Positions 5,201 to 39,502 of a DNA stretch of 64,000 nt are shown here, piece after piece. Within the stretch, counting starts at the first letter, position 1. Each line of letters opens with the position of its first letter. Below the pieces are notes generated by a model. It made no database searches. It had not been told where the DNA came from and saw only the letters and a list, made by a program, of their open reading frames with translations. The DNA is from an uncultured Caldilineales bacterium (GTDB taxonomy: Bacteria > Chloroflexota > Anaerolineae > J102), in the NCBI GenBank assembly GCA_964535455.1, contig CAZHTZ010000001.1, positions 5,015 through 69,014 on the forward strand, written 5' to 3'. The translations under genes were made by a program, and so were the position numbers.

Positions 5201-5702
5201 CCGTGCGGCTGAACTCCGCGTATAGAGCGATGGACCGGCCCACGTCCACCACGATCAGGAAGGGCGTCCGGCCGCCTTCGATCTCGCCCGGCGGCAGATT
5301 GCGGGCATAGGACTGCGCCTGCTGTCTGGCCCGCTCCATGGCCGTATCCCAACCCGCGGTCCCGCGCACCGCCGTGCCCCGCCTGCGGCCCTTGATTTGG
5401 CGTTCTCCCTCCTGCGACAGCGCCTCATCTGTCGCGCGGTCGCTCCCCTGTTTGGCCTCCAGCACAAAACAGCCGCGTTTATAAAGGTCGATGCGGCCGG
5501 TCGCGCCGTGGGGCAGCGGCGCCGATTTCTCGAAGACGTAGGCGTTCTGGGCCTCGTCCGGCGTCGACGGGTGCGGCTGCTCCACGTCCAGCACGTGGCA
5601 CAGCTCGGTCAGAAAGAGCTGGTAATTGGCGCGTTCGGCGGCGCCGGAGGCCTGCCAGCGCTCGATAAAGGCCTGGATGTCCTGTGGAGAAGCGTCAGGC
5701 AT
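2217..5702 (-). CDS. Type IIG/IIL restriction-modification enzyme of the MmeI family: N-terminal PD-ExK nuclease, gamma-class N6-adenine methyltransferase, C-terminal TRD. A PglX-like relationship is possible.
   Basis: The N-terminus [38 protein letters not shown] matches the MmeI/PglX family. D-x-EAK is present ([17 protein letters not shown]). Motif I is [28 protein letters not shown] and motif IV is [12 protein letters not shown]. The C-terminal half is low-GC (2930-3960). Confidence 0.8.
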
Positions 5703-5834
5703 GGACGTATTTCCGACCAGCACGGCGAAGGGTCTATGGACGCCCAGTATACCGCAGAAGCCCACCCAGCCCGATTCATCGGGCGCTGTTTCTTAGCCGG
5801 GGGACTTCATCCTCCGGCGGCCTGCCCACCACAC

Positions 5835-20963: not shown

Positions 20964-22427
20964 CTATGGCGCCGGCAGCGCGAAATCGGCGCCGACGATG
21001 AGCTGGAGATCGATGCCAGTCTGGACCCCGCTGCCCGGCCGGATGTTCTCATCGCCGATCGCAAACTGCTCGACAAGCTGGCTGAAGGTGAACGGCTTGG
21101 CGCCACCGTAGTCGATGATCTGCGTCTGGGCATAGTCGTTGCGGTCGGCGTTGGCGAAACCGGTGACTACGTACCCCTTGCCCGCCAACCATTCGGCCAC
21201 CTGGCGGCCCATTTCGGGATTGTTGGTGCCGTTCAAGACGGCGACCCGGGCCTGCTCGCTCGCCAGTTGCTCGCGCACCGGGTCGACGGGTGTAGGGGTC
21301 GCGGTTGCGGCCGCCGGCGCCGGGTTGAAGAAGGCGTCCACGGCAGGCTTGATGACCTCCATCTGCGGCATCAACACGCTGGCGCCGGAAGGCGTTATCG
21401 TACCGATGGCCATGGTGCGATCGAAAACGAGACGGCGAAGGTTCTGCATGTCCAGCTTGCGAGCGACATTGGCCATGGCGATCTGCTGGCTGACCGGCAT
21501 ATCGGTCTGGAAGGAGTCAGACAGGGCGCTCAAAATGGCGGGCATCCGGGCAATGAGCTGGGGCAGCGCTCCGGCGCTCATCACCTTGTCCTTGATCGCC
21601 ACCATGACCTGTTGCTGGCGCTCCATGCGACCGAAGTCGCTATCGACATGGCGCGTGCGGGCGTATTTCAGCGCCGTGTTTGCATCCATGCAGTAATGCC
21701 CGGCTTTGATAAAGAAGGGGTCGTAGCCGTAGTTGTCATCAGGAAAAGTGGGATCGCTGATGTCCCTGGGGACATCGATTTCGACACAGCCGATCTCGTC
21801 GATGAGCTTGCGGAAGCCTTCGAAGTTGATGCGGGCGTAATAATGGATGGGTTGGCCGAGCAACTCCGACACCGTCTGTATCGCCAAACCGGGGCCGCCG
21901 CCCTCCCGTTTCTCCAGGTCGCCGATCACGTGGGCAGTGTTGATGCGTGAGGGACCTGAGCCAGGGATGTTCACCCACAGGTCGCGGGGAAGCGACAACA
22001 TGCCCACGTCGCCGGTCGAAGGTTCGACCGTGAGCACGATCATCGTATCGGTCCGATAGTAGCCGCGTTCGTTGGGCCGTTGGTCGACACCCAGCAGCAG
22101 GATATTCGTACGTCCCTGCACACTCCACAGTGGGGACAGGATCGGTGCGGTCAGGCTATCGGCGCCCGTCGCATCGGCCGCGTCGACCGCGCCGGCGTCA
22201 GTGGGTTGGTCACCGGCCTGTTGGGCCGCTGCCTCCGCCTGAGCCGCCCGCATCCTGGCGAGCTGAGGCGCGTTGGCGACTACCGAGCGGGTTGTCTGGA
22301 AGAAGAGGAAGGTGGCGTAGCCAAAGGATGCCAGGAAAAGCAATAGGAGGAAACCCAAAAGCAAACCCGAAAGGGCGCTGGGCCGGTTTCTGTTCTTGCC
22401 GTAGGGCGAGGGACGAAGTTGCGTCAT
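20964..22427 (-). CDS. LCP (LytR-CpsA-Psr) family cell-envelope phosphotransferase.
   Basis: N-terminal TM, LCP core ILLLGVDQRPNERGYYRTDTMIVLTV...LSLPRDLWVNIPG, and a C-terminal LytR_C-like region. Confidence 0.85.
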   Translation of the reverse strand: MTQLRPSPYGKNRNRPSALSGLLLGFLLLLFLASFGYATFLFFQTTRSVVANAPQLARMRAAQAEAAAQQAGDQPTDAGAVDAADATGADSLTAPILSPLWSVQGRTNILLLGVDQRPNERGYYRTDTMIVLTVEPSTGDVGMLSLPRDLWVNIPGSGPSRINTAHVIGDLEKREGGGPGLAIQTVSELLGQPIHYYARINFEGFRKLIDEIGCVEIDVPRDISDPTFPDDNYGYDPFFIKAGHYCMDANTALKYARTRHVDSDFGRMERQQQVMVAIKDKVMSAGALPQLIARMPAILSALSDSFQTDMPVSQQIAMANVARKLDMQNLRRLVFDRTMAIGTITPSGASVLMPQMEVIKPAVDAFFNPAPAAATATPTPVDPVREQLASEQARVAVLNGTNNPEMGRQVAEWLAGKGYVVTGFANADRNDYAQTQIIDYGGAKPFTFSQLVEQFAIGDENIRPGSGVQTGIDLQLIVGADFALPAP

Positions 22428-22540: not shown

Positions 22541-24721
22541 TCAACCGGCGTTGGCGATTTGCGGAAGAGGCGTCTGGTAGACCGCCGTGTCCGTGACAAT
22601 GTAGAGATAGTTGGTGTTCTCGTCAACATAGATGCTGCGCATGTCCTTCAGACTACCAGCATGATCGACCGGCGTCAGTTGGCTGAGCAGCTTTCCAAGC
22701 TTGTCGAACACGAGAACGCGGTCGGTCGCTGCATCGCCCAAGAAGAGACGGCCGTCCGGCCCTTCCGCCTCGTTCACCCACATGATAACGGCGTTGCCGA
22801 TGGGGGGATCGATGACGTCGAACGCAAATGCTTCCTGGGCGCGGTTGAAGTACTTGAGCACGGTGCCGTTGGGATGCAGAAGCCAGACAGTGCCGTCGAT
22901 GGCGCTATCTATGACGGAACTGATATTGACTTTGGTTCCCTCTGTGAAATACGGTTCCGGCGGATCGGCATAGCCATCGCCGCTAGACCGGTAGCGCCAC
23001 ACCTGCGAGTTGTTGGTGTCGAGAAAGTAGAGGTTGCCGTTGTAGAACTCCATGTCACGCACGAAGCCGAGCTTGTCGTTGTTCGCCATGGTGACATTCA
23101 CCGGACCGAGACCTTCGACGCTGCTGAACAACTGGTTGCTGCGATCGAGGACCAGTGGTCCTGTCGCCGTCCGATTGCCTGCGGCAGGCGCCCATACCGA
23201 TTGGGCCAGTTCACCGATCCGCCGCCCACCGACATCGGTTCCAGTCTGAATCAGCGCTTCCGGTTGCGTGCCGCTGGCCAGGCGATCGCCCGTGGTCTTG
23301 TCAAGCTGGTAGCGCTCCAGTTTGCCCTGACCCTGTTGGGTATCCAAAACGTAGACGTTGAGGCCGTTGACGTACACACGCGAGGGGTCACGCGTGGCCC
23401 CGTCGAAACTGATGAGCGGAAGGTCAAAGCCACGGAGCAGCGGCTGGATGTGGTTGACTGCGGCCTTGGCAGTGTTCACCTTGTTGCGGAGCGCCAGAAC
23501 CTGCTCGTTCTGCGGGAAGAACTCCGACGCCTGCTGGAGCTGCTCTTCAGCCGCCTTCAAGTACTGGCGCTTCTCGCTCTCATTTTGCGTCTTCTGGGCG
23601 GCGTTATACTGAACTTCGACTCCCGTGAGGTACTGGTCGAAGAGTTTCGCCCGCTGTTGATTCTGCACATACCAGACACCGCCGGTGATGAGCAGGATGG
23701 TCGCGGCCAGTGCGCCGACAATAATCAGGACAAAGGGGATACGACGAGAAGGCGCCCCCGCCTTTCGAGGAGCAGCGCCACGCTCGGGCGCAGCCTCACG
23801 GGGCGCGCTGGGTGCGCCGCGGTCCGCAGTGCTGCCGGCGGCGGCGCCGCCCATGGCTGCGATCTTGCCTTTCAGGCCGAGACCCGTCTTCTTGGCAGGG
23901 AGCGCCTCCGAGCCATCGGCGATGCCTTCCCCCGCCGTCAAGCTGTCCGCGTCAGTCGTGACCGGCATGGTCTGCGGCGCTCGCGGCGTCGGCGACGTCG
24001 CTGCCATCACCGCTGCCGGGGCCGCCTCGGCGCCCTTCGCCCTGGAAGACGCTGCCAGCGCGATCACGATCAGGGTCAGTTCTTCTTGCATGTTGATGCC
24101 GACACCGGCCAGTTGGTCGGCAACTGCCTGCGCCCGCGGGACGGAGGTGGCTTCGCGCATCACCGGCACTTCAAGATGGGCGGCCCAGGCGCTGTTCATG
24201 GCCACAATCACGTTGCCAGGCTGGCCGGGCACGCGACCGATCTCAATGGGGGGCGGCGCCTGCTCGCCCAGAGCAAGGTAGCGTTCGTTGTTGAGCGGAG
24301 AGAACCACTGCAAGCCGGCGGCGCTGCGCACTGCCAGGATGGTCGGACCTGCCTGCGCCGAGACGATCTCGGCGCCCGTCACGGCCAGACAGGTGGCGCC
24401 GCCGCTGAAGCGGGTGTTGTGATAGAGGTTGTACTGTTGGATGGATGCGTGTGCGGCGCGCAGGGCAGCCGTGAGCGCTGAGGCGACGTCGCCACTGTGG
24501 TAGTAATAGGTTTCCTGAATCGTGCCGAGCAGGTCCCGATAGAGCCGGCCGCGTCCCTGGTCGGGACCTGCCAGCTCAACCAGAATGTAGAGGTTGCCTT
24601 TGCCTTCCGCAGGCGCAATGCCGGCGTCAGGCTCGATCACACGCACAGTGGGGGCGCTGCGGTCGCGATGGCCGCCAAGCAGGTTGAGGATACTAACGTC
24701 AGTTTGCAGTGCTTGGGACAT
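22541..24721 (-). CDS. Hypothetical membrane-anchored protein with an N-terminal PP2C-like fold, a TM helix, a coiled coil and a C-terminal beta-propeller-like region.
   Basis: The N-terminus (GNLYILVELAG...FSGGATCLAVTG) resembles a PP2C/SpoIIE fold. TM segment is RIPFVLIIVGALAATILLITGGVWY. The C-terminus has repeated NGNLYFLD/DGRLFLGD blades. This is inference from sequence patterns only. Confidence 0.6.
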   Translation of the reverse strand: MSQALQTDVSILNLLGGHRDRSAPTVRVIEPDAGIAPAEGKGNLYILVELAGPDQGRGRLYRDLLGTIQETYYYHSGDVASALTAALRAAHASIQQYNLYHNTRFSGGATCLAVTGAEIVSAQAGPTILAVRSAAGLQWFSPLNNERYLALGEQAPPPIEIGRVPGQPGNVIVAMNSAWAAHLEVPVMREATSVPRAQAVADQLAGVGINMQEELTLIVIALAASSRAKGAEAAPAAVMAATSPTPRAPQTMPVTTDADSLTAGEGIADGSEALPAKKTGLGLKGKIAAMGGAAAGSTADRGAPSAPREAAPERGAAPRKAGAPSRRIPFVLIIVGALAATILLITGGVWYVQNQQRAKLFDQYLTGVEVQYNAAQKTQNESEKRQYLKAAEEQLQQASEFFPQNEQVLALRNKVNTAKAAVNHIQPLLRGFDLPLISFDGATRDPSRVYVNGLNVYVLDTQQGQGKLERYQLDKTTGDRLASGTQPEALIQTGTDVGGRRIGELAQSVWAPAAGNRTATGPLVLDRSNQLFSSVEGLGPVNVTMANNDKLGFVRDMEFYNGNLYFLDTNNSQVWRYRSSGDGYADPPEPYFTEGTKVNISSVIDSAIDGTVWLLHPNGTVLKYFNRAQEAFAFDVIDPPIGNAVIMWVNEAEGPDGRLFLGDAATDRVLVFDKLGKLLSQLTPVDHAGSLKDMRSIYVDENTNYLYIVTDTAVYQTPLPQIANAG

Positions 24722-24971
24722 GGTAGGCCTTGGGGGAAGGAGGGAGGAGCATGGGGGTCGAACCGGTTGCGTTGCCGTGCGTTCCTGCGTATGAGGCACC
24801 AATAATCAGCACAATTGACCAGACACGACGATAAGTCTGATACTTGTTACGATTGTACACAAGTGGCGCGGCCAGAGCAAGGGAACGGAACTGGTAGGGT
24901 GTGCTTTGTGGCGCCGTTTGCCTTGTGGTAGGATGCAACCGAAAATTTGTTCTACGCGTGTGGCCGTTGAA

Positions 24972-26165
24972 ATGCTTGAATTGCGCAAATTGGTCGACAA
25001 GCTGGAAGTGATGGGCCAAGAGGTCGCGCGGCGTGAAAACCGGTATGCCGACCTCGCCGGTGAGGCCCGCGACGTGTTGGCGAGCACGCAGGTCGATGGC
25101 GAATTGCGTGCGAAGATCGAACAGGCCCTGGCGGTGGATTCGAGCTGGCGCGGCGCCGAGCCTTTAGAGGACGTTCTGGACGTGGCGCACCGCCCGCTGA
25201 TGGCGCCCGAACATGCCACCCTGGTCGCTGTCGATGGCTCGCAGATCTATCCCGACCGCCATGGCTCGGCGCTCTACTACCTCATCAACATCGGCTCGAT
25301 CCGGCTGCGCCAGGGTAGTGGGCAGGCGCCGATCACCGACACCTTGCCCGAGCTCTGCTTTACCGAAGAGGAGATCTACGAAAACGGGCAGGATCTGGTC
25401 TCGACCGACCGCGTCAACGCCCGCCGCGACCTGGCCGAGATGAAGGCCCTGGCACGGCTCACCTGGGAGGAGCAGGGCCAGGAATCGGAGCGACTGGTGG
25501 TGGCGATCAAGGACGGGCAGTTGATCCTGTGGATGAGCGAACGGGAGGCGAGCAGCGCCGACTCGAAGCTCGAGGGCGACTACATCGAAGAGCTGCAGGC
25601 CATCCAGCGTGCAGGCGGCGTGCCCGTGGGCTACGTGGCGCGCCCCCGTTCTGCCAATGTCGTCCGTCTCCTCTGGGTGGCAGGTCTACGATCCGAGGCC
25701 ATCACCAAGGAAACCGTGCGGGAACACAAGTACCGCGCCCTGACCGATCGCACCCTCTTCACCGGCAGACTTGGTTCCAACCAGCGTTCGGCCCTGTTTG
25801 TCAACACGTCCAAGGCCAACCGCGGAACCTTTGCCCCGGCCGGACAGGCCATCTGCTTCTTCTATTTGAATGTGGCGCGTGCGGATGAGCGCCTGTCCCA
25901 GATCGCCCGCATCGACGTGCCGCAGTGGGTGGCCGAACAACCCGACTTGTTGGATCGGGTGCAGAACGCCGTCTACGCCGACTGCGGTGGTATGGGCTTC
26001 CCCTACGTGCTGAGTCGCGCCGACGAGCTGGCCGTGGTCTCACAGATGGAAAAGCGGGATCTGGATGCCCTGTTGGCGGTCGCCGTAGCTCAGGCTACAG
26101 GCGACATGCCTGAAGTTTCGGTCAAGGCTCAGCAGAAAGAGCGCACGCGAGGATATGTACACTGA
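24972..26165 (+). CDS. nurA: NurA-family 5'-3' nuclease.
   Basis: ATLVAVDGSQIYPDRHGSALYYLINIGSIRL is the NurA catalytic D-G-S region. The stop overlaps the next ATG (TGATG at 26163-26167). Confidence 0.75.
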   Translation: MLELRKLVDKLEVMGQEVARRENRYADLAGEARDVLASTQVDGELRAKIEQALAVDSSWRGAEPLEDVLDVAHRPLMAPEHATLVAVDGSQIYPDRHGSALYYLINIGSIRLRQGSGQAPITDTLPELCFTEEEIYENGQDLVSTDRVNARRDLAEMKALARLTWEEQGQESERLVVAIKDGQLILWMSEREASSADSKLEGDYIEELQAIQRAGGVPVGYVARPRSANVVRLLWVAGLRSEAITKETVREHKYRALTDRTLFTGRLGSNQRSALFVNTSKANRGTFAPAGQAICFFYLNVARADERLSQIARIDVPQWVAEQPDLLDRVQNAVYADCGGMGFPYVLSRADELAVVSQMEKRDLDALLAVAVAQATGDMPEVSVKAQQKERTRGYVH

Positions 26166-26764
26166 TGGACGAAGCGATGGTCACGGTGGGACGGGTGCTG
26201 AACAGCACGACCACCACCTTCACTTTTGGCTATAGCCAGCCGGATGTGCCGCAGCCGCCGTTTGGCTCCCTGGTTTGGGCGGAGATGGGCGCCGATCGCG
26301 TCTACGGTCTGGTGTATCAGATCATCGTCCGCGATGACGCCTTTGTCCGCCAGATCGTGGCGGCGGCGGATAGTCTGACCGAAGAACGCATCCAGGACCT
26401 GCGCCAGCGCCGCCAGGTGCCGGTGGAAGTCACGGCCCTGGCCATCGCCTGCCGGCAGAATGGTCAGGTCTATCAGCGCATCCCACCCGCACCTCCGGGC
26501 GCCTTGCAGCCCATCTATGCCTGCCCGCCCGCCGAGGTGCGCCGCATCATCGACCGCGGCCGCTACGACTATTTCCGCACTGTTTTGAACAACCTGGAGT
26601 GCCCGGGCGAAGAGTTGGTGGCAGCCAGCCTGCGCCTGGCAGCCGCCTGCCAGCCCGCTGGACAGGATCAGGCCTTGTTGCTCGACGCCGGTCGCGAGCT
26701 GGCCCGTCTGCTGGCCACCGATCTGCCCCGGCTGGACGCCATCCTGCGCCGCCTGGCTTCCTAA
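26165..26764 (+). CDS. Hypothetical 199-aa protein with an N-terminal HAS-barrel-like segment, translationally coupled between nurA and herA.
   Basis: VTVGRVLNSTTTTFTFGYSQ...GSLVWAEMGADRVYGLVYQII resembles HerA HAS-barrel N-domains. The remainder is helical. There is no known-family motif. Confidence 0.55.
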   Translation: MDEAMVTVGRVLNSTTTTFTFGYSQPDVPQPPFGSLVWAEMGADRVYGLVYQIIVRDDAFVRQIVAAADSLTEERIQDLRQRRQVPVEVTALAIACRQNGQVYQRIPPAPPGALQPIYACPPAEVRRIIDRGRYDYFRTVLNNLECPGEELVAASLRLAAACQPAGQDQALLLDAGRELARLLATDLPRLDAILRRLAS

Positions 26765-26796
26765 ACCGCCTTTGCTTCCCTGGTTCGAGACCTGCC

Positions 26797-28626
26797 GCGA
26801 TGGACGACTACGCGAATCCGGATGCTTTTTTCTCGTCATTGCGCGATGATGATCCCCCGGGGATAGTCGATCACTCACCCGCTGGCAATGATGCCTATCT
26901 TTCGGCGCTGCGCCACACGGGTCCTGCCGATGAGACGGCCCGCCACCTGGGCCAGGTAGTCGCGGGCGCCCTGAGCAGCGGGCTGGACGTACGGCTGGAC
27001 CGTGACCGCGCCCTCGAGGACCTGGCCGTGGGCCGGTACGTCGTGATTCGCGTGGGGCAACGGCTGTTCTTCGGCATGATCACCGACATCACGCTCGACA
27101 GCACCAATCCCGCCTTCGAGAAGACGCCGCCCGACCTGTCTAGCGAGTTCTTGCGTCAGGTCTATCTGGGCACCAGCACCTTCGGTCTGGTTCACGTCAC
27201 GCCGATGCTGCTTCTCAACCTGGATGACTTGAAACCGAAGCCGGTCAAGACCATTCCCGGCCACTATGCCGACGTCTCCGCGGCGTCGCCCGAAGAAGTG
27301 GGCTACGTCTTCGGCGAGGAAGGCAGCCGCAAGGATGCCGATGGCAAGACCGCCACCTACTTTCATGTCGGCGAGCCGCTGGACATGGAGGATGTCAAGA
27401 TCACGCTGAACCTGAACCGGCTCGTGGAGCGCTCGTCGGCGGTGTTCGGCAAGTCGGGCACCGGCAAGACCTTCCTCAGCCGGATGTTGCTGGCAGGCGT
27501 GATCGAACAGGACGTGGCCGTCAACCTGGTCTTCGACATGCACAACGAGTACGGCTGGGAGGGTGCGTCCGAAGGCGCCACCACCAAGGTGAAGGGGTTG
27601 AAGCAGTTGTTCCCCGGCCGGGTCGTCATTGCCACGCTGGACGACGAAAGCAGCCGCCGGCGCCAGTCGAACCCGGACTTCACCGTCACCCTGGGCTATG
27701 AGCACATCGAGCCGGAGGACGTGGAGATGCTGGCGGGCGTCTGGAACCTGAGCGAGGCGCAGGTCGGGGCTCTGGCGGTGATGCGGCGTCGCATGGGGCC
27801 CACCTGGTTGAAGAACTTCATGGAAGACGGCTGGGTGGACGCCTACCGGAGCGAAGACGAGGAAAGCGGCAAGGTATTGATGGGCATCAAGGCCCTGGCC
27901 GATGACCTGGGCCAGCCGATGCAAACCCTGGACGCCTTGCGCCGCCGCTTCGAGAAACTACGTCGCTACGCCTTCATTCAGGAGGGTGCGGAAGACGCTG
28001 TGGGCCGCATTGTCCAGCACCTGCAGGCAGGAAAGCACGTCGTCCTGGAGTTCGGGCGCTATGGCAGCGACCTCGATGCCTACCTTCTGGTCGCCAACTT
28101 CCTGACCCGGCGCATTCATCAGAGCTATGTGAAGTCGAAGGAGGCGGCCCTGGGTGAGAAGAGCCGGGAGCCGCGGCCCCTGGTCATCACCATCGAGGAA
28201 GCGCACAAGTTCCTGGAACCGGCCATCGCCGCCCAGACCATTTTCGGCACCATCGCCCGCGAGCTGCGCAAGTACAATGTCACGCTGTTCATTGTCGACC
28301 AGCGCCCCAGCGGCATCGACTCCGAGGTGATGTCGCAGATCGGCACCCGCGTCACCCTCCTGCTGGACAACGAGGAAGATATCCGGGCTGTATTCATGGG
28401 CGTCAGCGGCGGGGCTGAGCTGCGCCAGGTGCTGGCGCGGCTGGAGAGCAAGGAACAGGCCCTCATCCTTGGCCATGCCGTTCCCATGCCTGTCGTGATC
28501 AAGACGCGACCCTATGACCTGGACTTCTACAAAGCCGTAGGTTATGTGGACGACGACGAGCTGCAGGCGCGCCTGCAGCAGAACACCGCCGAGATACGCG
28601 GTCGCCAACGAAACCGGTTGGAGTAG
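26797..28626 (+). CDS. herA: HerA/FtsK-superfamily ATPase (DUF87/HerA helicase-like).
   Basis: Its own HAS-barrel-like N-terminus (GRYVVIRVGQRLFFGMITDI), Walker A AVFGKSGTGKTFL, Walker B LVITIEEAHKFL. Confidence 0.8.
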   Translation, partial: AMDDYANPDAFFSSLRDDDPPGIVDHSPAGNDAYLSALRHTGPADETARHLGQVVAGALSSGLDVRLDRDRALEDLAVGRYVVIRVGQRLFFGMITDITLDSTNPAFEKTPPDLSSEFLRQVYLGTSTFGLVHVTPMLLLNLDDLKPKPVKTIPGHYADVSAASPEEVGYVFGEEGSRKDADGKTATYFHVGEPLDMEDVKITLNLNRLVERSSAVFGKSGTGKTFLSRMLLAGVIEQDVAVNLVFDMHNEYGWEGASEGATTKVKGLKQLFPGRVVIATLDDESSRRRQSNPDFTVTLGYEHIEPEDVEMLAGVWNLSEAQVGALAVMRRRMGPTWLKNFMEDGWVDAYRSEDEESGKVLMGIKALADDLGQPMQTLDALRRRFEKLRRYAFIQEGAEDAVGRIVQHLQAGKHVVLEFGRYGSDLDAYLLVANFLTRRIHQSYVKSKEAALGEKSREPRPLVITIEEAHKFLEPAIAAQTIFGTIARELRKYNVTLFIVDQRPSGIDSEVMSQIGTRVTLLLDNEEDIRAVFMGVSGGAELRQVLARLESKEQALILGHAVPMPVVIKTRPYDLDFYKAVGYVDDDELQARLQQNTAEIRGRQRNRLE

Positions 28627-28631
28627 CAGCC

Positions 28632-29888
28632 ATGCCCCCTATCCGCCTTCTGCACTTCGCCGATCTGCACATCGGCATGGAACGCCACGGTCGCGTGGAC
28701 CCTGCGACCGGCCTGAACAGCCGGGTGATGGACTTCCTCCGCCGCCTGTCGGACCTCGTCCAGTTTGCCATCGCCCGTGAAGTCGACCTGGTCATTTTTG
28801 CCGGCGATGCCTACAAAAACCGTGACCCCAACTCCACCTACCGCCGCGAGTTCTCCTGGCGGATCAAGGAATTGGCCGACAGGGGCGTCCCCGTGGTCCT
28901 GGTGCCGGGCAACCACGATCTGCCGGCAGTGGCGTCACGCGCCTCCTCCATCGAGGCCTTTGCCACGTTGCAGGTCCCCAATGTCTACGTGCTGGAACGC
29001 GAAGAGCTGGTGCAGTTGACCGCCCGGCGCGGCCAGCCGGTGCAGATCGCAGCCGCGCCCTATCCGTTCACCTCCGAGCTGGTCGCCCAGGAAGCGTACC
29101 GCGGGACCAGCCTCGATGCCCTCGACCGGCTCGTGAGCGACAAGATGGCGGAGAACATTCGGGCGCTGGCGCAGCAGGCGCGGCAGCAGGCAGAGACGCC
29201 CGCCATCCTGGTGGGGCACTTTTCGGTGGATGGCGCCGAACTCGGCTCGGAACGCGGCATCATGATCGGCCGGGATGTGAGCGTGCCGCGCTCGACGCTG
29301 GTCGATCCGGCCTGGGACTACGTCGCCCTGGGACACATCCATCGCTACCAGGACTTGAACGCAGGCGCTCAGCCACCCGTGGTCTACAGCGGCAGCGTGG
29401 AGCGCATCGACTTCGGCGAGGAGAAGGAGCCCAAGGGTTGGGTGCTGGCCGAAGTCGAACGCGGCCACACGACCTATCAGTTCATTCCCGGCTTTGAGCG
29501 CGAGGCCCGGCGTTTTGTCACCATCGACTGCGATGTGCGCGATGCCTCTGATCCAACCGCCGCCGTGCTCGCTGCCATCCGCAAGCGCGAGGTGCAGGAC
29601 GCCATCGTGCGCGTCCGGCTGCGCCTGCGTTCCGACCAGGATCCTCTGGTGAAGGAACGCGACCTGCGCGCCGCTCTGGTCGAGGCCTACGACGTGGCGG
29701 CCATTATCAAAGAGATCGACTGGGTTGTGCGCACCCGTTTGGGTGACGTGAACGTGGAGGCCCTGACTCCGTTAGAACTGCTGTCCCGCTATTTTCAGGT
29801 GTCCAATGTGCCCGCAGACCAGGCCGAAGCTCTGTTGCGGGACGCCAGGACCCTTGTCAGTGACGTGAACTCCCGGGACACAGCCTGA
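28632..29888 (+). CDS. Mre11/SbcD-like metallophosphoesterase nuclease.
   Basis: Calcineurin-like motifs LHFADLHIG, FAGDAYKNRDPN, VPGNHD, VGHFSV and LGHIHRYQ. It starts 5 nt after the herA stop. Confidence 0.85.
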   Translation: MPPIRLLHFADLHIGMERHGRVDPATGLNSRVMDFLRRLSDLVQFAIAREVDLVIFAGDAYKNRDPNSTYRREFSWRIKELADRGVPVVLVPGNHDLPAVASRASSIEAFATLQVPNVYVLEREELVQLTARRGQPVQIAAAPYPFTSELVAQEAYRGTSLDALDRLVSDKMAENIRALAQQARQQAETPAILVGHFSVDGAELGSERGIMIGRDVSVPRSTLVDPAWDYVALGHIHRYQDLNAGAQPPVVYSGSVERIDFGEEKEPKGWVLAEVERGHTTYQFIPGFEREARRFVTIDCDVRDASDPTAAVLAAIRKREVQDAIVRVRLRLRSDQDPLVKERDLRAALVEAYDVAAIIKEIDWVVRTRLGDVNVEALTPLELLSRYFQVSNVPADQAEALLRDARTLVSDVNSRDTA

Positions 29889-29905: not shown

Positions 29906-29939
29906 ATGCGCCCCTGCTCGGCGTGGAACAGGGGCGCAT
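29906..29939. terminator. Bidirectional stem-loop terminator between the convergent mre11-like and S8 protease genes.
   Basis: atgcgcccctg-ctcggcgtggaa-caggggcgcat forms a perfect 11-bp GC-rich stem. Confidence 0.6.
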
Positions 29940-29949
29940 GGAAGACGGG

Positions 29950-31239
29950 TCAGAACAGATGGAAGGCGAGCAACAACGTGAGCACGCAGCCGCCGGGCGT
30001 CGGCGGTGGCTTGGGTGGCGGTGTGGGTGTCGGCTCGGGCGGTGGCGTAGGCGTAGGTGTCGGCTCGGGCGGCGGTGGGGGGGGCGAGGGTGGCGTGTGG
30101 ACCGCCTGCCAGGCGGCATAGACGTCGCCGCGGCCCGTGCCCTGGCTGTTGGCGTCGAGGCCCAGGTCCACCGCCGTCGCCATCAAGCGTTCCTTGATTT
30201 GAGCAGGGGTCAGGCTGGCGTTGGCCGCCAGGAGCAGGGCTGCGACGCCACTGGCATGGGGTGTGGCCATGCTCGTCCCCGAAAGCTCGACGTAGTTGGT
30301 ATCCACGACGCGGCCCAGGGAGGTGCCGGCCGCACGCGCCGAGATGATCTTGGCGCCGGGGAAGACGACGTCGGGCTTCACCCGTCCATCTTCGGTCGGC
30401 CCGCGCGATGAGAAACTGGCGATCGTGTCCTCATCTGTACTGGCGCCGATGGTGATCACTTCACGGGCGCAGCCGGGCGAACCCACGGTGTGAGAATCGG
30501 GACCGAGGTTGCCGGCGGCGACCATGACGCAGACGCCCTCAGCTACAACCGCATCGCACGCCTCCGAGAGCGCATCGGTGCCGTCGCAGGAACCATCGCT
30601 GCCCAGGCTCAGGTTGACGATGGCAACACCCTGGTCAAGGACCCACTCCAGTCCGGCGATGACGTTGCTGGTACGCCCGTTGCCCTGGTCGTCGAGCACC
30701 TTGGCGATGTAGAGATCGGCGGCGGGCGCAATGCCCCGATAGCTGCCTCCACTCATCGCACCGGAGCCGGCGATAATCCCGGCGACGTGCGTGCCGTGCC
30801 CATTGCCATCCTGGGCGCTGCCCTTGCCTGTGAAGTCCTGTGAAGCCCGGACGCCCTCTTTCAAGTCGGTGTGGTTCAGGTCACAGCCTGTGTCGACGAT
30901 GCCGACCTTGACGCCTGCCCCTTCATCGCCGTTGCTCCACACGCGCGGGGCCCCGATGAGTGGAGCCGAACGGTCGAGCAGGGTGTGCACGGGCAGATCT
31001 TCCCAAATGCGCTCGATGGCTGGATGATCCGCCATCGCCAGGATGTCTGCGCGCGTGCCTTCCGTCGCCACCGCCGAAATGGTCCGGTAGGTCAGGTAGG
31101 GCGTAAACGCCATCGGCAGGCCCTGGGGGCTCACCTCGTCTTGGGCACGACGGTAGCGCACGATCACAGGGATCGTTTGGCTGGCATCAGCTTCCCGCAT
31201 GGTGCGGCGCAGGTCGGGGTGGATCTTGGCGAGGCTCAT
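29950..31239 (-). CDS. Subtilisin-like S8 serine peptidase with an N-terminal I9 propeptide, a C-terminal Pro/Thr linker and a hydrophobic tail.
   Basis: Catalytic VGIVDTGCD, HGTHVAGIIAG and GTSMATPHASG. C-terminus PPPPPEPTPTPTPP...GGCVLTLLLAFHLF. No obvious N-terminal signal peptide. Confidence 0.85.
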   Translation of the reverse strand: MSLAKIHPDLRRTMREADASQTIPVIVRYRRAQDEVSPQGLPMAFTPYLTYRTISAVATEGTRADILAMADHPAIERIWEDLPVHTLLDRSAPLIGAPRVWSNGDEGAGVKVGIVDTGCDLNHTDLKEGVRASQDFTGKGSAQDGNGHGTHVAGIIAGSGAMSGGSYRGIAPAADLYIAKVLDDQGNGRTSNVIAGLEWVLDQGVAIVNLSLGSDGSCDGTDALSEACDAVVAEGVCVMVAAGNLGPDSHTVGSPGCAREVITIGASTDEDTIASFSSRGPTEDGRVKPDVVFPGAKIISARAAGTSLGRVVDTNYVELSGTSMATPHASGVAALLLAANASLTPAQIKERLMATAVDLGLDANSQGTGRGDVYAAWQAVHTPPSPPPPPPEPTPTPTPPPEPTPTPPPKPPPTPGGCVLTLLLAFHLF

Positions 31240-31250
31240 AGCGAACTTCC

Positions 31251-31523
31251 TCAGTGCAGGGTGTGCACGGGTTGATCCGGCTCGATGCGCACGACCCAAC
31301 TGGCGCTGGCGAGTCCGAGCAGATCGGCGGCGCGTCCTTGTACGGCCAGACCGCGGACGAAGCGCAGGCGTCGCCTGATGACCAAACCGGCGGCCTCGGC
31401 TTCGGCCTCGTGGTCTGGTTCCAGGCGATCGCAACGCACGATGGCGGCGATATCGGCGTCAGGCTCGGCCTGGAGCGCTTCTAGAAAGGCGCGGCTGAAC
31501 TTGGCATTAAGGTCGGAAGCCAT
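31251..31523 (-). CDS. Free-standing peptidase-inhibitor I9 (subtilisin propeptide)-like protein.
   Basis: It is homologous to the propeptide of the downstream protease (LVIRRRLRFVRGLAVQG...VVRIEPDQPVHTL versus IERIWEDLPVHTL). It is in a different frame, and its stop lies 12 nt upstream of the protease ATG. Confidence 0.55.
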   Translation of the reverse strand: MASDLNAKFSRAFLEALQAEPDADIAAIVRCDRLEPDHEAEAEAAGLVIRRRLRFVRGLAVQGRAADLLGLASASWVVRIEPDQPVHTLH

Positions 31524-31737: not shown

Positions 31738-33120
31738 ATGCGGGTAGCAGCCATGATCATGGCGGGAGGCGAGGGGTCGCGGCTGACGGTGCTGTCTGAG
31801 CATCGCGCCAAGCCATCGGTGCCCTTTGCTGGCAAGTACCGCATCATTGACTTCACCCTGTCCAACTGCGTCAATTCCCATATCTTCGATGTCGCCATTC
31901 TCACCCAGTACCGGCCGCACTCACTCAACCAACACATTGGCAGCGGCAAACCCTGGGATCTGGACCGGCTGCGGGGTGGGGTGCGCCTGCTCCAGCCCTA
32001 TCAGGCGCGCGGATCGCAGGACTGGTATCAGGGCACGGCGGATGCCGTCCTCCAGAACCATGACTATCTTCTCAGGCATGATGCCGATCGCATCCTGATC
32101 CTTTCCGGCGACCACATCTATAAGATGGACTACCGGCAGATGATCGCCTTTCACGAGGAGAAAGGCGCCGATCTGACGGTGGGGGTGATGAATGTGCCGC
32201 TGGAAGAGACAGACCGCTTTGGCATCATGACGACCAACAAGGCGAATCGCGTGACGGAGTTCCACGAGAAGCCGAAGCTGCGTGACAAGGGAACGCTCGC
32301 CAGCATGGGCATCTACGTGTTCAATGTAGACACGCTCATCGAGCGTCTCCAGGAGGGGCACAAACGCGAGCCTAACCTTGATTTCGGCAAGCACGTCATC
32401 CCCACCATGATCGGTGAAGACAAAGTCTATGCCTACCAGTTCGAAGGCTACTGGGTGGATGTCGGGACGGTGGAGGCCTACTGGCGGACCTCGCTGGAGC
32501 TGTGCGATCCCAAGAGCCCTCTCAACCTGTGGGACACGAGCTGGCCGATTCGGACGCGCAGCCAGGAACGACCGCCGGTGAAGTGCAGTGCTCAGGGCAG
32601 GATCGTTCACTCCCTGGTAAGCAATGGCTGCACGATCCACGGTTATGTCGAAAACTCCGTGCTGTCACCGGGCGTCTTCGTGTCACCTGGGGCGATCGTG
32701 CGTGATTCCGTCGTCATGAACGATACGTGGATCGGACCGGGGGCGGTCGTCGATCGCGCGGTGGTAGACAAGTCGGTGGTTGTCGGTCCGGGTGTCCAGT
32801 TGGGATATGGCGATGACATGCACCCCAACTATGAGCATCCGGATTGGCTGGATGTGGGCATCACGGTCGTCGGCAAAGGTGCGTACATCGCCGCCAATGT
32901 CACCATCGGTCGCAACGTACTCATCCATTCGGATGTGGACGATGACGCCTTTGCCGGTCTGCCCGGGAACGTCGTGCCAAGCGGCGCCACCGTCCAACCG
33001 GGGCGCGTGCTTCTGCCGCCCGAGGCGCCTGTCAAATCTGTGACAGAGTCGCCGGTGGTGGTTCACGAGCCCCCTGCCGTAGCCAGCGCCACCGAAAAGA
33101 CGAAGGAGAAGCCAGCATGA
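31738..33120 (+). CDS. glgC: Glucose-1-phosphate adenylyltransferase.
   Basis: [38 protein letters not shown] motif, and a C-terminal left-handed beta-helix. Confidence 0.9.
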
Positions 33121-34367
33121 GCACGCTCGCCCTGATCCTGGCAGGCGGCGCCGGCCCTGACCTGCACGTGTTGACGGCCAATCGTTCTGACGCCGCCGTT
33201 CCCTTTGGCGGCAAGTACCGCGTCATCGACTTTGCCCTCTCCAACTGCGTTAACTCTAACATCTTCAACGTGTCGGTGCTGACGCAGTACATGCCGCGCT
33301 CACTCAACGAGCACATCCGCGCGGGCAAGCCCTGGGATCTTGACCGTGATGACGGTGGGGTGCGCCTTTTGCACCCTTACCAGGCCACTACTGACGGCCT
33401 GGGCAGATGGGAACAGGGGTCCAGCGACGCCATCCGCTTCAATCTCGATGTGGTGCGGGAGAGCCGCGCCGAACACATCGTGGTGCTGGCCGGCAACCAC
33501 ATCTACAAGATGAATTACCAGCCCATGATCGAGTTCCACCAATCTCGACGGGCTGATGTGACCGTGGGCGTGCTGGCGGTGCCTGCGCACCAAACCCAGC
33601 GCTTCGGTATGGTTACGGCCGACGCCGATGGCCGCATTACGCGTTTCGAAGAGAAGCCCCGGCGCACCCGGTCAATCCTCGCCAGCATGGGCATCTACGT
33701 CTTCAACGCTGAAGCCCTGAATGATGTCTTGTTGGGAATAGGTCAGTCCCACCGCCAACTGGGACGCGAGACGGTGCCCTGGTTTGTGAAGCACAAACGC
33801 GTCTTCGCCTATCAGTTCGAAGGCTACTGGGCGAACATCTCTACGATCCCTGCCTACTACGAAGCCAACATGGGCTTGCTGGCCGACATCCCCGCCCTCG
33901 ATCTGTCCGATCCACGCTGGGTCATCCACACTCAGTCAGAACAGCGACCACCCGTGCTGGTAGGAGCGGAAGCGCAGGTGAGCGGCAACCTGCTGTGCGA
34001 TGGCGCGCTCATCGAGGGCAAAGTGGTGCGCTCGGTGCTGGGGCCGGGAGTCTACGTTGCGCCCGGCGCCGAGGTGCACGACAGCATCATCATGAATGAC
34101 ACGGTGGTGGGCCCCGATGCGGTGGTGGATCGCGCCATTCTGGACAAACACGTCACCATCGGTGAAGGGGCTTTCGTTGGCCACGGTAGCGACAACACGC
34201 CCAACAGCAGCTCGCCCGGCATCCTGAACACCGGTATCACAGTGGTCGGCAAGCGCGCCAGCATCCCTGCAGATATGGTCGTGGGCCGCAACGTGATCCT
34301 GAGATCCCATGCGCGAGCAGAAGCCTTTCCGGCTGGCCAGATCGCCAGCGGCACGACCGTAGGATAG
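33117..34367 (+). CDS. glgD: GlgD-like regulatory subunit of ADP-glucose pyrophosphorylase.
   Basis: It is a paralog of glgC with a degenerate G-rich loop (LAGGAGPDL instead of GGEGSRL). A 4-nt overlap links it to glgC. Confidence 0.75.
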
Positions 34368-37748: not shown

Positions 37749-37801
37749 GAAGGGAACCCCGCGATGCGGCGCGGGCTGCAACGGGCGATGCCATGGGAAC
37801 G

Positions 37802-39502
37802 CTAGTTCTCCACCAGCGTGACCGTGAGGGCGCGATTCGTGCGGTTGCCGGCATTGTCGTAGATCTCGACGCCTACCAGGAAAGGACGATCCACGGGTGC
37901 TCCGGCGGCGTCCCAGGTCATCCGGTAGGGAGGCGTCGTCACTCTGCCAATGGCGCGCAAGATGCCCGTGGCGTCGGTGATGAAGGTGACCCTGGCAATG
38001 TCGGATCCCCCAGCGTTGTCCTGCGCCTCAACAGCCAGCGTGACTGGAGCCGCCACCGCGGCGTTGGGCGCTGGGCTATCAAAACGTCCCTCCGGCGGTG
38101 TCTTGTCACTCAGGGCCCGCACGGCAATGGGAGGATAGCGCGTCAGATAGTAGACGACATCATGCGGCGAATCGTAATCCCAGATATTGACATGCAGGTA
38201 GATGAAGTAGGAGCTGATGAGGACAAAGGTGACGGAGACCAAGGCGCCGAGCACCTTGGCTGCGGCGCTGCCGTTCCGGCCGGTGCGCGCCAGGGCGGCC
38301 TTCGCGTATTTCCAGAGCGTGGCCAGACCAAAGGCAAACCACAGATGGGACGAGATCAGACGGCGCATGCCAAACCCGTGTCCCGCCCACCAGTCGCGGG
38401 CCGCGGCGTTGATATACCACTGCGCCAGCACTGCGATCGTGAGGGGTAGGACGATGTCGAGAATCATGGCGCGTTCAGAACGGCGTATAAAGGCCAGCAG
38501 CACAATACCGGCCAGGCCTAGCAGCAGGACGGGCGCATGCGGAAAAAGACCATTGCGGCCACTGAAGAGGACATCCCAGAGATTCGGATCGGTCCACTGC
38601 ATCCAGGTCTCGCCTTGCGGGATCGCCCAGGCGCGGCCGTAAAGGTATTGGTTCTGCCAGACCAGGGGCACCAAAGCTACCAGAACACCTGCGGCCCAGG
38701 CCAGATAACGCCCGGCCACCCTGGAAACCGGTTCGTGCCTGGAAAAGACAGCGCGCAGTCCGAAGTAGCCTGCCACCAGCGCCACCGTGGCCAGGTTCTG
38801 CGTCCGCACCAGTCCGGCGAGCCCACCGGTGAGGCCCCAGAGGACAAAGGCTTGCCAGGAACCCCGGCGCTGTGCGCGCACCGCCATGTAGAAGAAGAGT
38901 ACCGTGACGAAGAAATCGTACACGTGGCTCATCGAGGGTTCCTGGAAGGTGTAGTAGGCCAGGTTGGTGGCCCAAAACACCAACAGGCTGGCGCCAAGCG
39001 CTGTACCCTCAGAGAACCACTGTCGCAAGAGGCGTGTCGCCAGCCACAACCCCAACGTGGCGTAGACGACCGCTGCAAACATCACCCCATACTGGAAGAA
39101 CAGGCTCCAGCCATCGCCCAGGGAGATGCTGGCGAGATGGAACCAGTTGAGCAGGCTGCCGATCGCATAGGCTCCACCGAAAAACGGCAGCCACAACAGG
39201 GCGGGGCCCAGCGTCCACACGTTGAGCGGTTTGCCCGTTTCCGTCAGGCGGTTGCCAAACCCGTAGGGGTCCATCCCCACCCGCATGTAGGGCGGTTGTA
39301 GTCGGGCGTAGTCGTTGGTCAAATCGATGTCGTGGTCGTAGGCCAGCGACACCAGGTAGTGATAGTAGTACTTGCCGTCGCTCTCGACCTTGTAGGGCCA
39401 GTTGCGGTAGGAGCCAGTGGCGAAAAAGAGAACGCTGGCAATGACAAAGCTGAGCAGCAGCGCTTTGCGCGTCATGGACAGGGAACGTTGAGAGCGCGCC
39501 AT
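37802..39502 (-). CDS. Large polytopic membrane protein (putative GT-C-like glycosyltransferase) with a C-terminal Ig-like domain.
   Basis: More than 10 TM segments and the C-terminal beta-rich segment PVTLAVEAQDNAGGSDIARVTFI...LTVTLVEN. Assignment is by architecture only. Confidence 0.6.
   Translation of the reverse strand: MARSQRSLSMTRKALLLSFVIASVLFFATGSYRNWPYKVESDGKYYYHYLVSLAYDHDIDLTNDYARLQPPYMRVGMDPYGFGNRLTETGKPLNVWTLGPALLWLPFFGGAYAIGSLLNWFHLASISLGDGWSLFFQYGVMFAAVVYATLGLWLATRLLRQWFSEGTALGASLLVFWATNLAYYTFQEPSMSHVYDFFVTVLFFYMAVRAQRRGSWQAFVLWGLTGGLAGLVRTQNLATVALVAGYFGLRAVFSRHEPVSRVAGRYLAWAAGVLVALVPLVWQNQYLYGRAWAIPQGETWMQWTDPNLWDVLFSGRNGLFPHAPVLLLGLAGIVLLAFIRRSERAMILDIVLPLTIAVLAQWYINAAARDWWAGHGFGMRRLISSHLWFAFGLATLWKYAKAALARTGRNGSAAAKVLGALVSVTFVLISSYFIYLHVNIWDYDSPHDVVYYLTRYPPIAVRALSDKTPPEGRFDSPAPNAAVAAPVTLAVEAQDNAGGSDIARVTFITDATGILRAIGRVTTPPYRMTWDAAGAPVDRPFLVGVEIYDNAGNRTNRALTVTLVEN

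Follow-up and report, generated by a model that had tools for sequence, protein, structure and literature searches.

Archaea encode herA, mre11, rad50 and nurA in one cluster for the resection of DNA ends. The HerA hexamer moves duplex DNA through its pore, the exit of which is the HAS-barrel ring, and in Deinococcus radiodurans a NurA dimer docks on this ring through an acidic patch of HerA and a basic face of NurA (PMC9960219). The nurA and hepA genes of Thermus overlap at their stop and start codons, leaving no gene between them, and a nurA-hepA-sbcD-sbcC arrangement has already been noted in Oceanithermus profundus (PMC5448004). NurA-HerA has so far been studied, in archaea, Deinococcus and Thermus, as a two-protein machine. 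Here, a 64-kb stretch of DNA from an uncultured Caldilineales bacterium (Chloroflexota, Anaerolineae; contig CAZHTZ010000001.1, positions 5,015 to 69,014), hereafter the window, was analysed. At window positions 24972–29888 it carries an operon of nurA, a gene for a protein of 199 amino acids (aa) (open reading frame 199, ORF199), herA and mre11. This is probably a vertically inherited chromosomal operon for processing the ends of DNA double-strand breaks and the bacterial counterpart of the archaeal cluster, with a third conserved protein encoded between the nurA and herA genes.

All four genes lie on the plus strand, and coordinates throughout are window positions. The first, nurA (24972–26165), encodes a NurA-family 5'-3' exo/endonuclease of 397 aa and overlaps ORF199 (26165–26764) in a TGATG stop/start junction at 26163–26167. 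ORF199, whose assignment comes from structure, encodes a stand-alone HAS-barrel protein that is a proposed accessory subunit of the NurA-HerA machine. A spacer of 35 nucleotides (nt) separates its TAA (26762–26764) from the ATG of herA (26800–28626), which encodes a HerA/FtsK-superfamily hexameric DNA translocase of 608 aa with a HAS barrel of its own. After a further 5 nt (28627–28631) follows mre11/sbcD (28632–29888), encoding an Mre11-family Mn-dependent phosphoesterase nuclease of 418 aa. The in-frame herA reading frame opens already at 26599, and the true start was set at the ATG at 26800 because the codon at 26797 is GCG and the methionine at 26800 is invariant across the HerA alignment (A3).

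The families of the three flanking genes were assigned from profile matches and conserved motifs. The NurA profile PF09376 matched residues 83–356 over positions 2–254 of its 254 (E 1.8e-23, 83.7 bits against a cut-off of 21), and the catalytic aspartate lies N-terminally in a D-G-S context, LVAVDGSQIYPD (VAVDGSQIYPD), that is conserved in paired orthologue sequences. HerA is built like other HerA proteins of the FtsK-HerA superfamily, with a HAS barrel at the N terminus, a DUF87 P-loop domain in the centre and both Walker motifs; in Pfam, DUF87 scored 105.3 bits (E 6e-30) and the HAS barrel 23.9 bits (E 4.5e-5), just under the cut-off of 25.2. Its Walker A (GKSGTGKT) and Walker B (ITIEEAH) motifs include residues G217-K218-x-G220-T221-G222-K223 and E466-E467-A468-H469, which are invariant in A3. 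In a solved-structure search with this HerA, the proteins of Thermococcus kodakarensis (E 6e-17) and Sulfolobus solfataricus (E 1.5e-14) were found, and that of D. radiodurans was not reached at E 1e-3. The NCBIfam HerA equivalogs NF040819 and NF040937 (repair) and NF042943 and NF042944 (anti-phage) gave 61–76 bits against cut-offs of 800–970; because the repair and anti-phage models score alike and about 10-fold below their cut-offs, the window HerA is assigned to neither class by sequence alone. Mre11 scored 136.6 bits with TIGR00619 (sbcd; cut-off 77.65), and its best solved relative was the Thermotoga maritima Mre11/SbcD (E 1e-29). The phosphoesterase residues D11/H13, G58-D59, G93-N94-H95-D96, H196 and G234-H235-I236-H237 are invariant in the Mre11 alignment (A2).

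An initial annotation of this DNA had described four tightly packed plus-strand genes with a TGATG overlap and a 5-nt gap, the NurA D-G-S and HerA Walker A/B motifs and five Mre11/SbcD phosphoesterase motifs, and each of these was confirmed. It had placed a gap of 32 nt before herA, which measures 35 nt. Its description of ORF199 as a HAS-barrel protein was likewise borne out by the structural comparisons below. A protein unrelated to HerA or absent from homologous operons would, by its account, have weakened the claim; ORF199 is related to HerA and does occur in such operons.

ORF199 drew no significant match in Pfam, NCBIfam or PADLOC, its best Pfam profiles being the HAS barrel PF09378 (E 0.068, 13.7 bits against 25.2) and PriA 3'BD (E 0.057). 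An AlphaFold model built from a 21-sequence alignment reached a predicted local distance difference test (pLDDT) score of 90.3 and a predicted template modelling (pTM) score of 0.83. In the model, an N-terminal beta-barrel into which a helix pair is inserted spans residues 7–119, and a C-terminal helical bundle spans residues 122–198. The top 50 Foldseek matches were all HerA (probability 1.0), and the matches of the structure searches were confined to HerA N-terminal domains, those of defence-system HerAs included. The predicted HAS-barrel fold of ORF199 is in this way established by structure and not by sequence. A sequence-level proof was rejected: the Pfam match is below threshold, and the hhalign comparison with the HerA profile of this clade, in which residues 32–130 fall in register with the HAS region, is non-significant (E 0.025, probability 2%).

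The ORF199 family comprises 187 word-indexed homologues of about 195–200 aa, every one of them labelled hypothetical, and 849 representatives at 50% identity in a profile search; the exact protein was found elsewhere on a single 1.8-kb Logan contig. Acidic and basic residues are invariant in the motifs D57-D58-x-F-V-R-Q and D78, R80, R83-Q84. Several distant members carry a precomputed PF09378 match. Two of these, of 221–229 aa (L080 8001–8666 and L081 8001–8690), seem cyanobacterial, with NdhS, CpeT, CpeS and a phycobilisome linker encoded nearby; both genes directly follow ndhS, and neither nurA nor herA occurs within 8 kb of them. No description of a conserved stand-alone HAS-barrel partner was found in the literature covered, which did not extend to the FtsK-HerA comparative genomics of Iyer et al. 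2004. This conserved stand-alone component is the new feature of the locus, the resection operon itself being of a known kind.

To place the operon among its relatives, as the initial annotation had proposed, gene neighbourhoods were compared across 72 loci from a genome scan, all of Chloroflexota Anaerolineae type (Caldilineales, Anaerolineales and Thermoflexales), and 6 loci added by further look-ups. An ORF199 homologue was present in 76 loci, of which 70 were evaluable for nurA and 62 for herA. A nurA gene lay immediately upstream of the homologue in 61 loci and 0.8–1.6 kb upstream in 2, and so beside or near it in 63 of 70 (90%); herA lay immediately downstream in 41 and 0.5–3.3 kb downstream in 13, giving 54 of 62 (87%) within 3.3 kb. 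Eight nurA-ORF199 loci had no herA in 10 kb. In 7 ORF199 loci at least 3 kb of upstream sequence contained no nurA; 6 of these loci carry herA or end before it. Given these counts, ORF199 is the constant element of the module and stays with the remaining partner when the other has moved. The gap between nurA and ORF199 has a median of about 15 nt and is at most 50 nt in 44 of 62 cases. Where a distance of 0.5–3.3 kb separated herA from ORF199, the genes in between that were checked were of the housekeeping kind (a short-chain dehydrogenase/reductase and an M32 carboxypeptidase). The link of Mre11 to the module is facultative: mre11 follows herA in 14 of 40 evaluable loci, half of them with a separation of 1–7 kb. 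In one herA (L005 10571–12283), from a long-read metagenome-assembled genome (MAG), the gene is split into several frames, through either pseudogenisation or homopolymer sequencing errors.

The flanks of the operon are housekeeping genes with lineage-wide synteny, and its guanine-cytosine (GC) content is that of the neighbouring sequence. About 20 loci, and an 86%-identical relative (L074), have a LytR-CpsA-Psr (LCP) gene and a gene for a 753-aa protein upstream, and the Anaerolineales loci have guaA and a phosphoribosyltransferase gene upstream and thyX downstream. The genes of the module remain linked in MAGs labelled Chloroflexota (Anaerolineae and Dehalococcoidia), Actinomycetota and Clostridia; outside Chloroflexota, gene contexts were viewed for Clostridia and Actinomycetota members, among them a nurA-160aa-ORF228-herA arrangement in a MAG labelled Actinomycetota (L079).

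Because it reproduces the docking domain in free form and is linked to both nurA and herA, ORF199 is most likely a third physical subunit of the NurA-HerA machine, as judged from synteny and fold. We tentatively extend this to the whole family, which could be an obligate third subunit of a NurA-HerA(-Mre11-Rad50) resection machine widespread in bacteria, a proposal for which we put the chances at somewhat below even. A free HAS-barrel ring or adaptor would then mimic the NurA-docking face of HerA and assemble, gate or hand over the nuclease, and the textbook two-component model of NurA-HerA would be incomplete for the bacteria whose MAGs are labelled Chloroflexota, Actinomycetota and Clostridia. 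The distant cyanobacterial members beside ndhS and the weak profile similarity to HerA would suit a HAS-barrel protein that acts independently, such as a DNA-binding or regulatory factor, and merely shares the operon. Such independence is nonetheless unlikely given the very strong linkage to nurA and herA through overlapping or near-overlapping stop and start codons, the persistence of that linkage in MAGs labelled as four groups, and a fold that is the NurA-docking domain of HerA.

The initial annotation had also described the operon as lacking rad50. Within the window this holds: no SbcC-type Pfam match was found in ten of its largest reading frames (487–1182 aa, covering every locus with a frame of at least 600 aa), and tblastn with a related SbcC gave no match in the 64 kb. 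As a description of the system it was overstated, since relatives carry nurA-ORF199-herA-(alkZ)-mre11-sbcC (L029, L076 and L077), and SbcC/Rad50, not found alongside mre11 in the window, is encoded beside its orthologues in L029, L075, L076 and L077. The SbcC-like gene of L029, two genes beyond mre11, encodes 753 aa with a Walker A motif (GENGAGKSS) and a CPLCG zinc hook. Its homologues are short (696–753 aa), have Rad50 zinc-hook and SbcC Walker-B Pfam matches and are abundant in Anaerolineales. A compact nurA-ORF189-herA-mre11-sbcC cluster is present in L077, a MAG labelled Clostridia; L076 has nurA-ORF200-herA-alkZ-like-mre11-87aa-sbcC in one direction, and L075 alkZ-like-mre11-127aa-sbcC. 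The window operon is a locally truncated form of this five-gene bacterial cluster, nurA-ORF199-herA-mre11-sbcC.

An AlkZ-like (PF06224) DNA glycosylase gene lies directly upstream of mre11 in L029 (13531–14757), L075 (4735–5985) and L076 (5161–6387), and between herA and mre11 in two of the three. Its recurrence suggests that crosslink unhooking is linked to Mre11-SbcC in these bacteria, and a crosslink glycosylase inside related clusters again points to DNA repair. A separate 1228-aa SbcC homologue from an Anaerolineae relative (P0215), with homing-endonuclease (PF05204) and intein-splicing (PF14890) matches, appears to be an intein-containing SbcC.

In the T. maritima Mre11-Rad50 structures, a C-terminal helix-loop-helix of Mre11 is the Rad50-binding element. 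The C-terminal tail of the window Mre11 may by analogy be such an element, and its residues E376, P380, Y387, L401 and A405 are invariant in A2 whether or not sbcC is adjacent. Because complete clusters occur in relatives, short SbcC is widespread in Anaerolineales and the Mre11 tail is kept, sbcC is most probably encoded elsewhere in this genome, outside the window; for an unlinked gene the argument draws on the lineage-wide presence of short SbcC. A Rad50-independent machine, in which Mre11/SbcD would be recruited directly to HerA-NurA, possibly via ORF199, and act without any SbcC/Rad50, would fit the position of mre11 directly after herA, with gaps of 2–30 nt in seven related loci and the 5 nt seen here. 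It would also fit the lack of sbcC in the window and in most mre11-containing loci, and one study reports that Sulfolobus Mre11 physically interacts with HerA and with Rad50 (PMC2288612). Such a machine is quite unlikely, as the Mre11 tail is invariant in sbcC-linked and unlinked proteins, orthologues 43–47% identical to the window Mre11 adjoin sbcC, short SbcC occurs widely across that class of bacteria, and Mre11 of T. maritima, to which it is closest among solved structures, acts in complex with Rad50 (3qg5).

The region upstream of nurA offers a further argument for a repair function. A predicted promoter at 24906–24934 on the plus strand consists of a -35-like TTGTGG (24906–24911), a 17-nt spacer and an extended -10 element, TGg-TAGGAT, with its hexamer at 24929–24934. 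It is followed after 6 nt by a palindrome resembling a LexA (Cheo/SOS) box, GAAAATTTGTTC (24941–24952, plus strand), with one mismatch to GAAC-N4-GTTC. The palindrome spans the stretch from 31 to 20 nt before the nurA ATG, where transcription would be expected to start. A consensus promoter and terminator scan, the call counts of which were at chance level, passed over 24906–24934 and called instead a weaker site at 24815–24844, a type of call that occurs at chance frequency. In Firmicutes and Actinobacteria the LexA box reads GAAC-N4-GTTC, with variations of it reported in Chloroflexi (PMC4951493, citing a Dehalococcoides study). On the basis of that motif GAAAATTTGTTC was identified as a putative LexA-type box, with the operator at the promoter that would be expected of a LexA regulon of the Gram-positive/Chloroflexi type.

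Of 60 regions upstream of nurA, 39 contained a box with at most one mismatch, whereas random 230-nt windows drawn from these loci did so in 6.2% of cases, and with a stricter pattern 26 of the 34 matches in 1.15 Mb fell in the 13.9 kb of sequence that lies upstream of the nurA genes. In most of the regions upstream of orthologous nurA genes the palindrome is preceded at 5–7 nt by a TATAAT-like hexamer, an arrangement that is kept where NurA is only 34–56% identical and the surrounding intergenic sequence has diverged; in a second architecture the palindrome lies just before a TATACT or TACAAT hexamer. From this conserved box SOS control is predicted, and the operon is probably under a LexA operator, which argues for repair and against defence. 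No description of a LexA-type box on nurA was met in the literature, although no search was aimed at one. Upstream of detached mre11, alkZ and sbcC genes in other loci, LexA-like boxes occurred only as scattered chance-level matches. The only other clean match in a promoter position, a perfect GAACATTTGTTC palindrome 52 nt upstream of ssb (L009 14726–14737), is consistent with a LexA-type regulon in the lineage. The only perfect GAAC-N4-GTTC match of the window, GAACGCTAGTTC (37797–37808), stands at the junction of two minus-strand genes and is probably fortuitous, since the window-wide box count is at chance level.

Together these features suggest a mechanism in which LexA would repress the operon through the GAAC-N4-GTTC-like box at the transcription start and DNA damage would induce it. 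The HerA hexamer, driven by ATP, would then feed duplex DNA through the HAS-barrel pore into the NurA dimer, which would degrade the strands it receives. Mre11/SbcD, together with a short SbcC/Rad50 encoded outside the window, would clear or nick blocked ends, and ORF199, as a free copy of the NurA-docking HAS barrel of HerA joined to a helical bundle, may bridge, cap or regulate the NurA-HerA interface.

Several observations weigh against this reading of the operon as a whole. The case for an interaction of ORF199 with NurA or HerA consists of synteny and fold, and its profile-profile similarity to HerA is not significant by itself (probability 2%). No sbcC was found for this genome in the 64 kb covered, and no sbcC lay nearby in most of the relatives whose mre11 follows herA and whose downstream sequence extends for at least 2.3 kb. 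The LexA-type box is absent from 21 of the 60 nurA promoters, and the loci compared are related and do not count as independent samples. Lastly, the effects of Thermus HerA extend to competence and DNA donation (PMC5448004), which leaves room for roles other than repair.

The initial annotation had left open a reduced end-resection machine or a nuclease-helicase defence module, of which the first comes close to our preferred reading and the second was not sustained. Searches of viral contigs and of plasmids returned no matches to the ORF199 family, and a mobile-element origin was rejected on these grounds. PADLOC gave generic HerA matches only, with no Sir2 or DUF4297 partner and no meaningful match for NurA, ORF199 or Mre11, and the NCBIfam anti-phage scores equalled the repair scores far below cut-off; a defence-system assignment was rejected accordingly. 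In the window the neighbours of herA encode the HAS-barrel protein, NurA and Mre11 and not Sir2 or DUF4297, and the module showed no defence-island or mobile context and no patchy horizontal spread. An anti-phage module built on HerA in the manner of Sir2-HerA or DUF4297-HerA, with NurA and Mre11 as its nuclease effectors, could point to the PADLOC HerA models matched by HerA (best 4e-36), to an NCBIfam HerA_antiphage match as weak as those of the repair models, to the defence-system HerAs near ORF199 in structure and to a restriction-modification gene about 19 kb away, yet is highly improbable for an operon of native GC content with a predicted SOS-type operator and no viral or plasmid copies, whose housekeeping flanks and LCP and 753-aa synteny recur in about 20 related loci, whose proteins lack defence partners and equivalog-level scores, and which erodes through housekeeping-gene insertion instead of moving as a compact cassette. 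The restriction-modification gene (2217–5765, minus strand) encodes a 1182-aa MmeI-family type IIL enzyme with MmeI_N, helicase-spacer, Mtase and target recognition (TRD) domains. A local drop in GC content (0.527 at 3001–4000 against about 0.64 elsewhere) makes its horizontal acquisition probable, and it is unrelated to the operon.

Downstream of mre11, between it and the convergent gene of an S8 peptidase, lies a GC-rich hairpin (29906–29939; folding energy -30.2 kcal/mol, z -3.16) that none of 200 shuffled sequences matched in stability. The initial annotation had called it a convergent stem-loop terminator; the stable hairpin stands, but it has no T-tract, for which reason the consensus scan did not call it. 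It probably serves to terminate transcription from both sides or to stabilise mRNA ends. Scanning the window for Rfam families and tRNAs gave no matches. The C-terminal linker of the S8 subtilase (29950–31434, minus strand), PPSPPPPPPEPTPTPTPPPEPTPTPPPKPPPTP, is rich in Pro and Thr and, together with a hydrophobic tail, resembles a cell-surface anchoring signal. Further downstream, tandem glucose-1-phosphate adenylyltransferase-like paralogues (GlgC-type NTP_transferase; 31738–33120 and 33117–34367, plus strand) overlap by 4 nt, and the second GlgC-type copy in L074 is 48% identical to the first copy of the window. Divergent from nurA, the 753-aa protein (22541–24802, minus strand) has no Pfam domain, is syntenic with the LytR-CpsA-Psr gene (20964–22427) and may be an uncharacterised envelope protein.

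On the reading of a vertically inherited resection operon, bacteria have a five-gene nurA-X-herA-mre11-sbcC cluster that parallels the archaeal operon, and ORF199 becomes a concrete, testable candidate for the control of nuclease loading or activity. LexA control, probable in this lineage, would place NurA-HerA in a bacterial SOS regulon. The ideas of a Rad50-less Mre11 and of a defence module are not supported, which removes a false lead, and vertical conservation among housekeeping genes together with sbcC in the lineage largely takes away the unusual character first ascribed to the arrangement.

Set against described systems, the locus differs from the HerA anti-phage systems (Sir2-HerA/Nezha, DUF4297-HerA and TdpAB), with which it shares a HerA-family ATPase and the HAS barrel as assembly site for a partner enzyme, in that the partner is NurA and not Sir2, DUF4297 or TdpB, and in having no defence-island context or mobility. 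With SbcCD/Mre11-Rad50 of T. maritima and Escherichia coli it has in common a TIGR00619 match above cut-off, all phosphoesterase motifs and the length and tail typical of full-length SbcD, whereas its mre11 is not adjacent to sbcC and is co-transcribed with herA instead. Deinococcus and Thermus likewise have a bacterial nurA-herA pair in a housekeeping context, and Oceanithermus is a precedent for the linkage of bacterial nurA-herA to sbcD/sbcC; compared with Thermus, a conserved 199-aa HAS-barrel gene intervenes here and sbcC is missing locally. The archaeal operon of Sulfolobus, Pyrococcus and Thermococcus unites the same NurA, HerA and Mre11 families, with DNA end resection as the presumed common function, and the window HerA is nearer in sequence to the T. 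kodakarensis and S. solfataricus proteins than to that of D. radiodurans. The host here is a bacterium of the Chloroflexota (Anaerolineae), nurA comes first, an extra HAS-barrel gene stands between nurA and herA, rad50 is not found locally and a LexA-type operator is predicted, so that the four archaeal genes are not found together and the layout is neither archaeal nor of the Deinococcus type, as the initial annotation had stated; a complete bacterial version that includes ORF199 is present in L076 and L077. By analogy, the window operon would work like archaeal HerA-NurA-Mre11-Rad50 and like NurA-HerA of Deinococcus and Thermus, through the same core mechanism.

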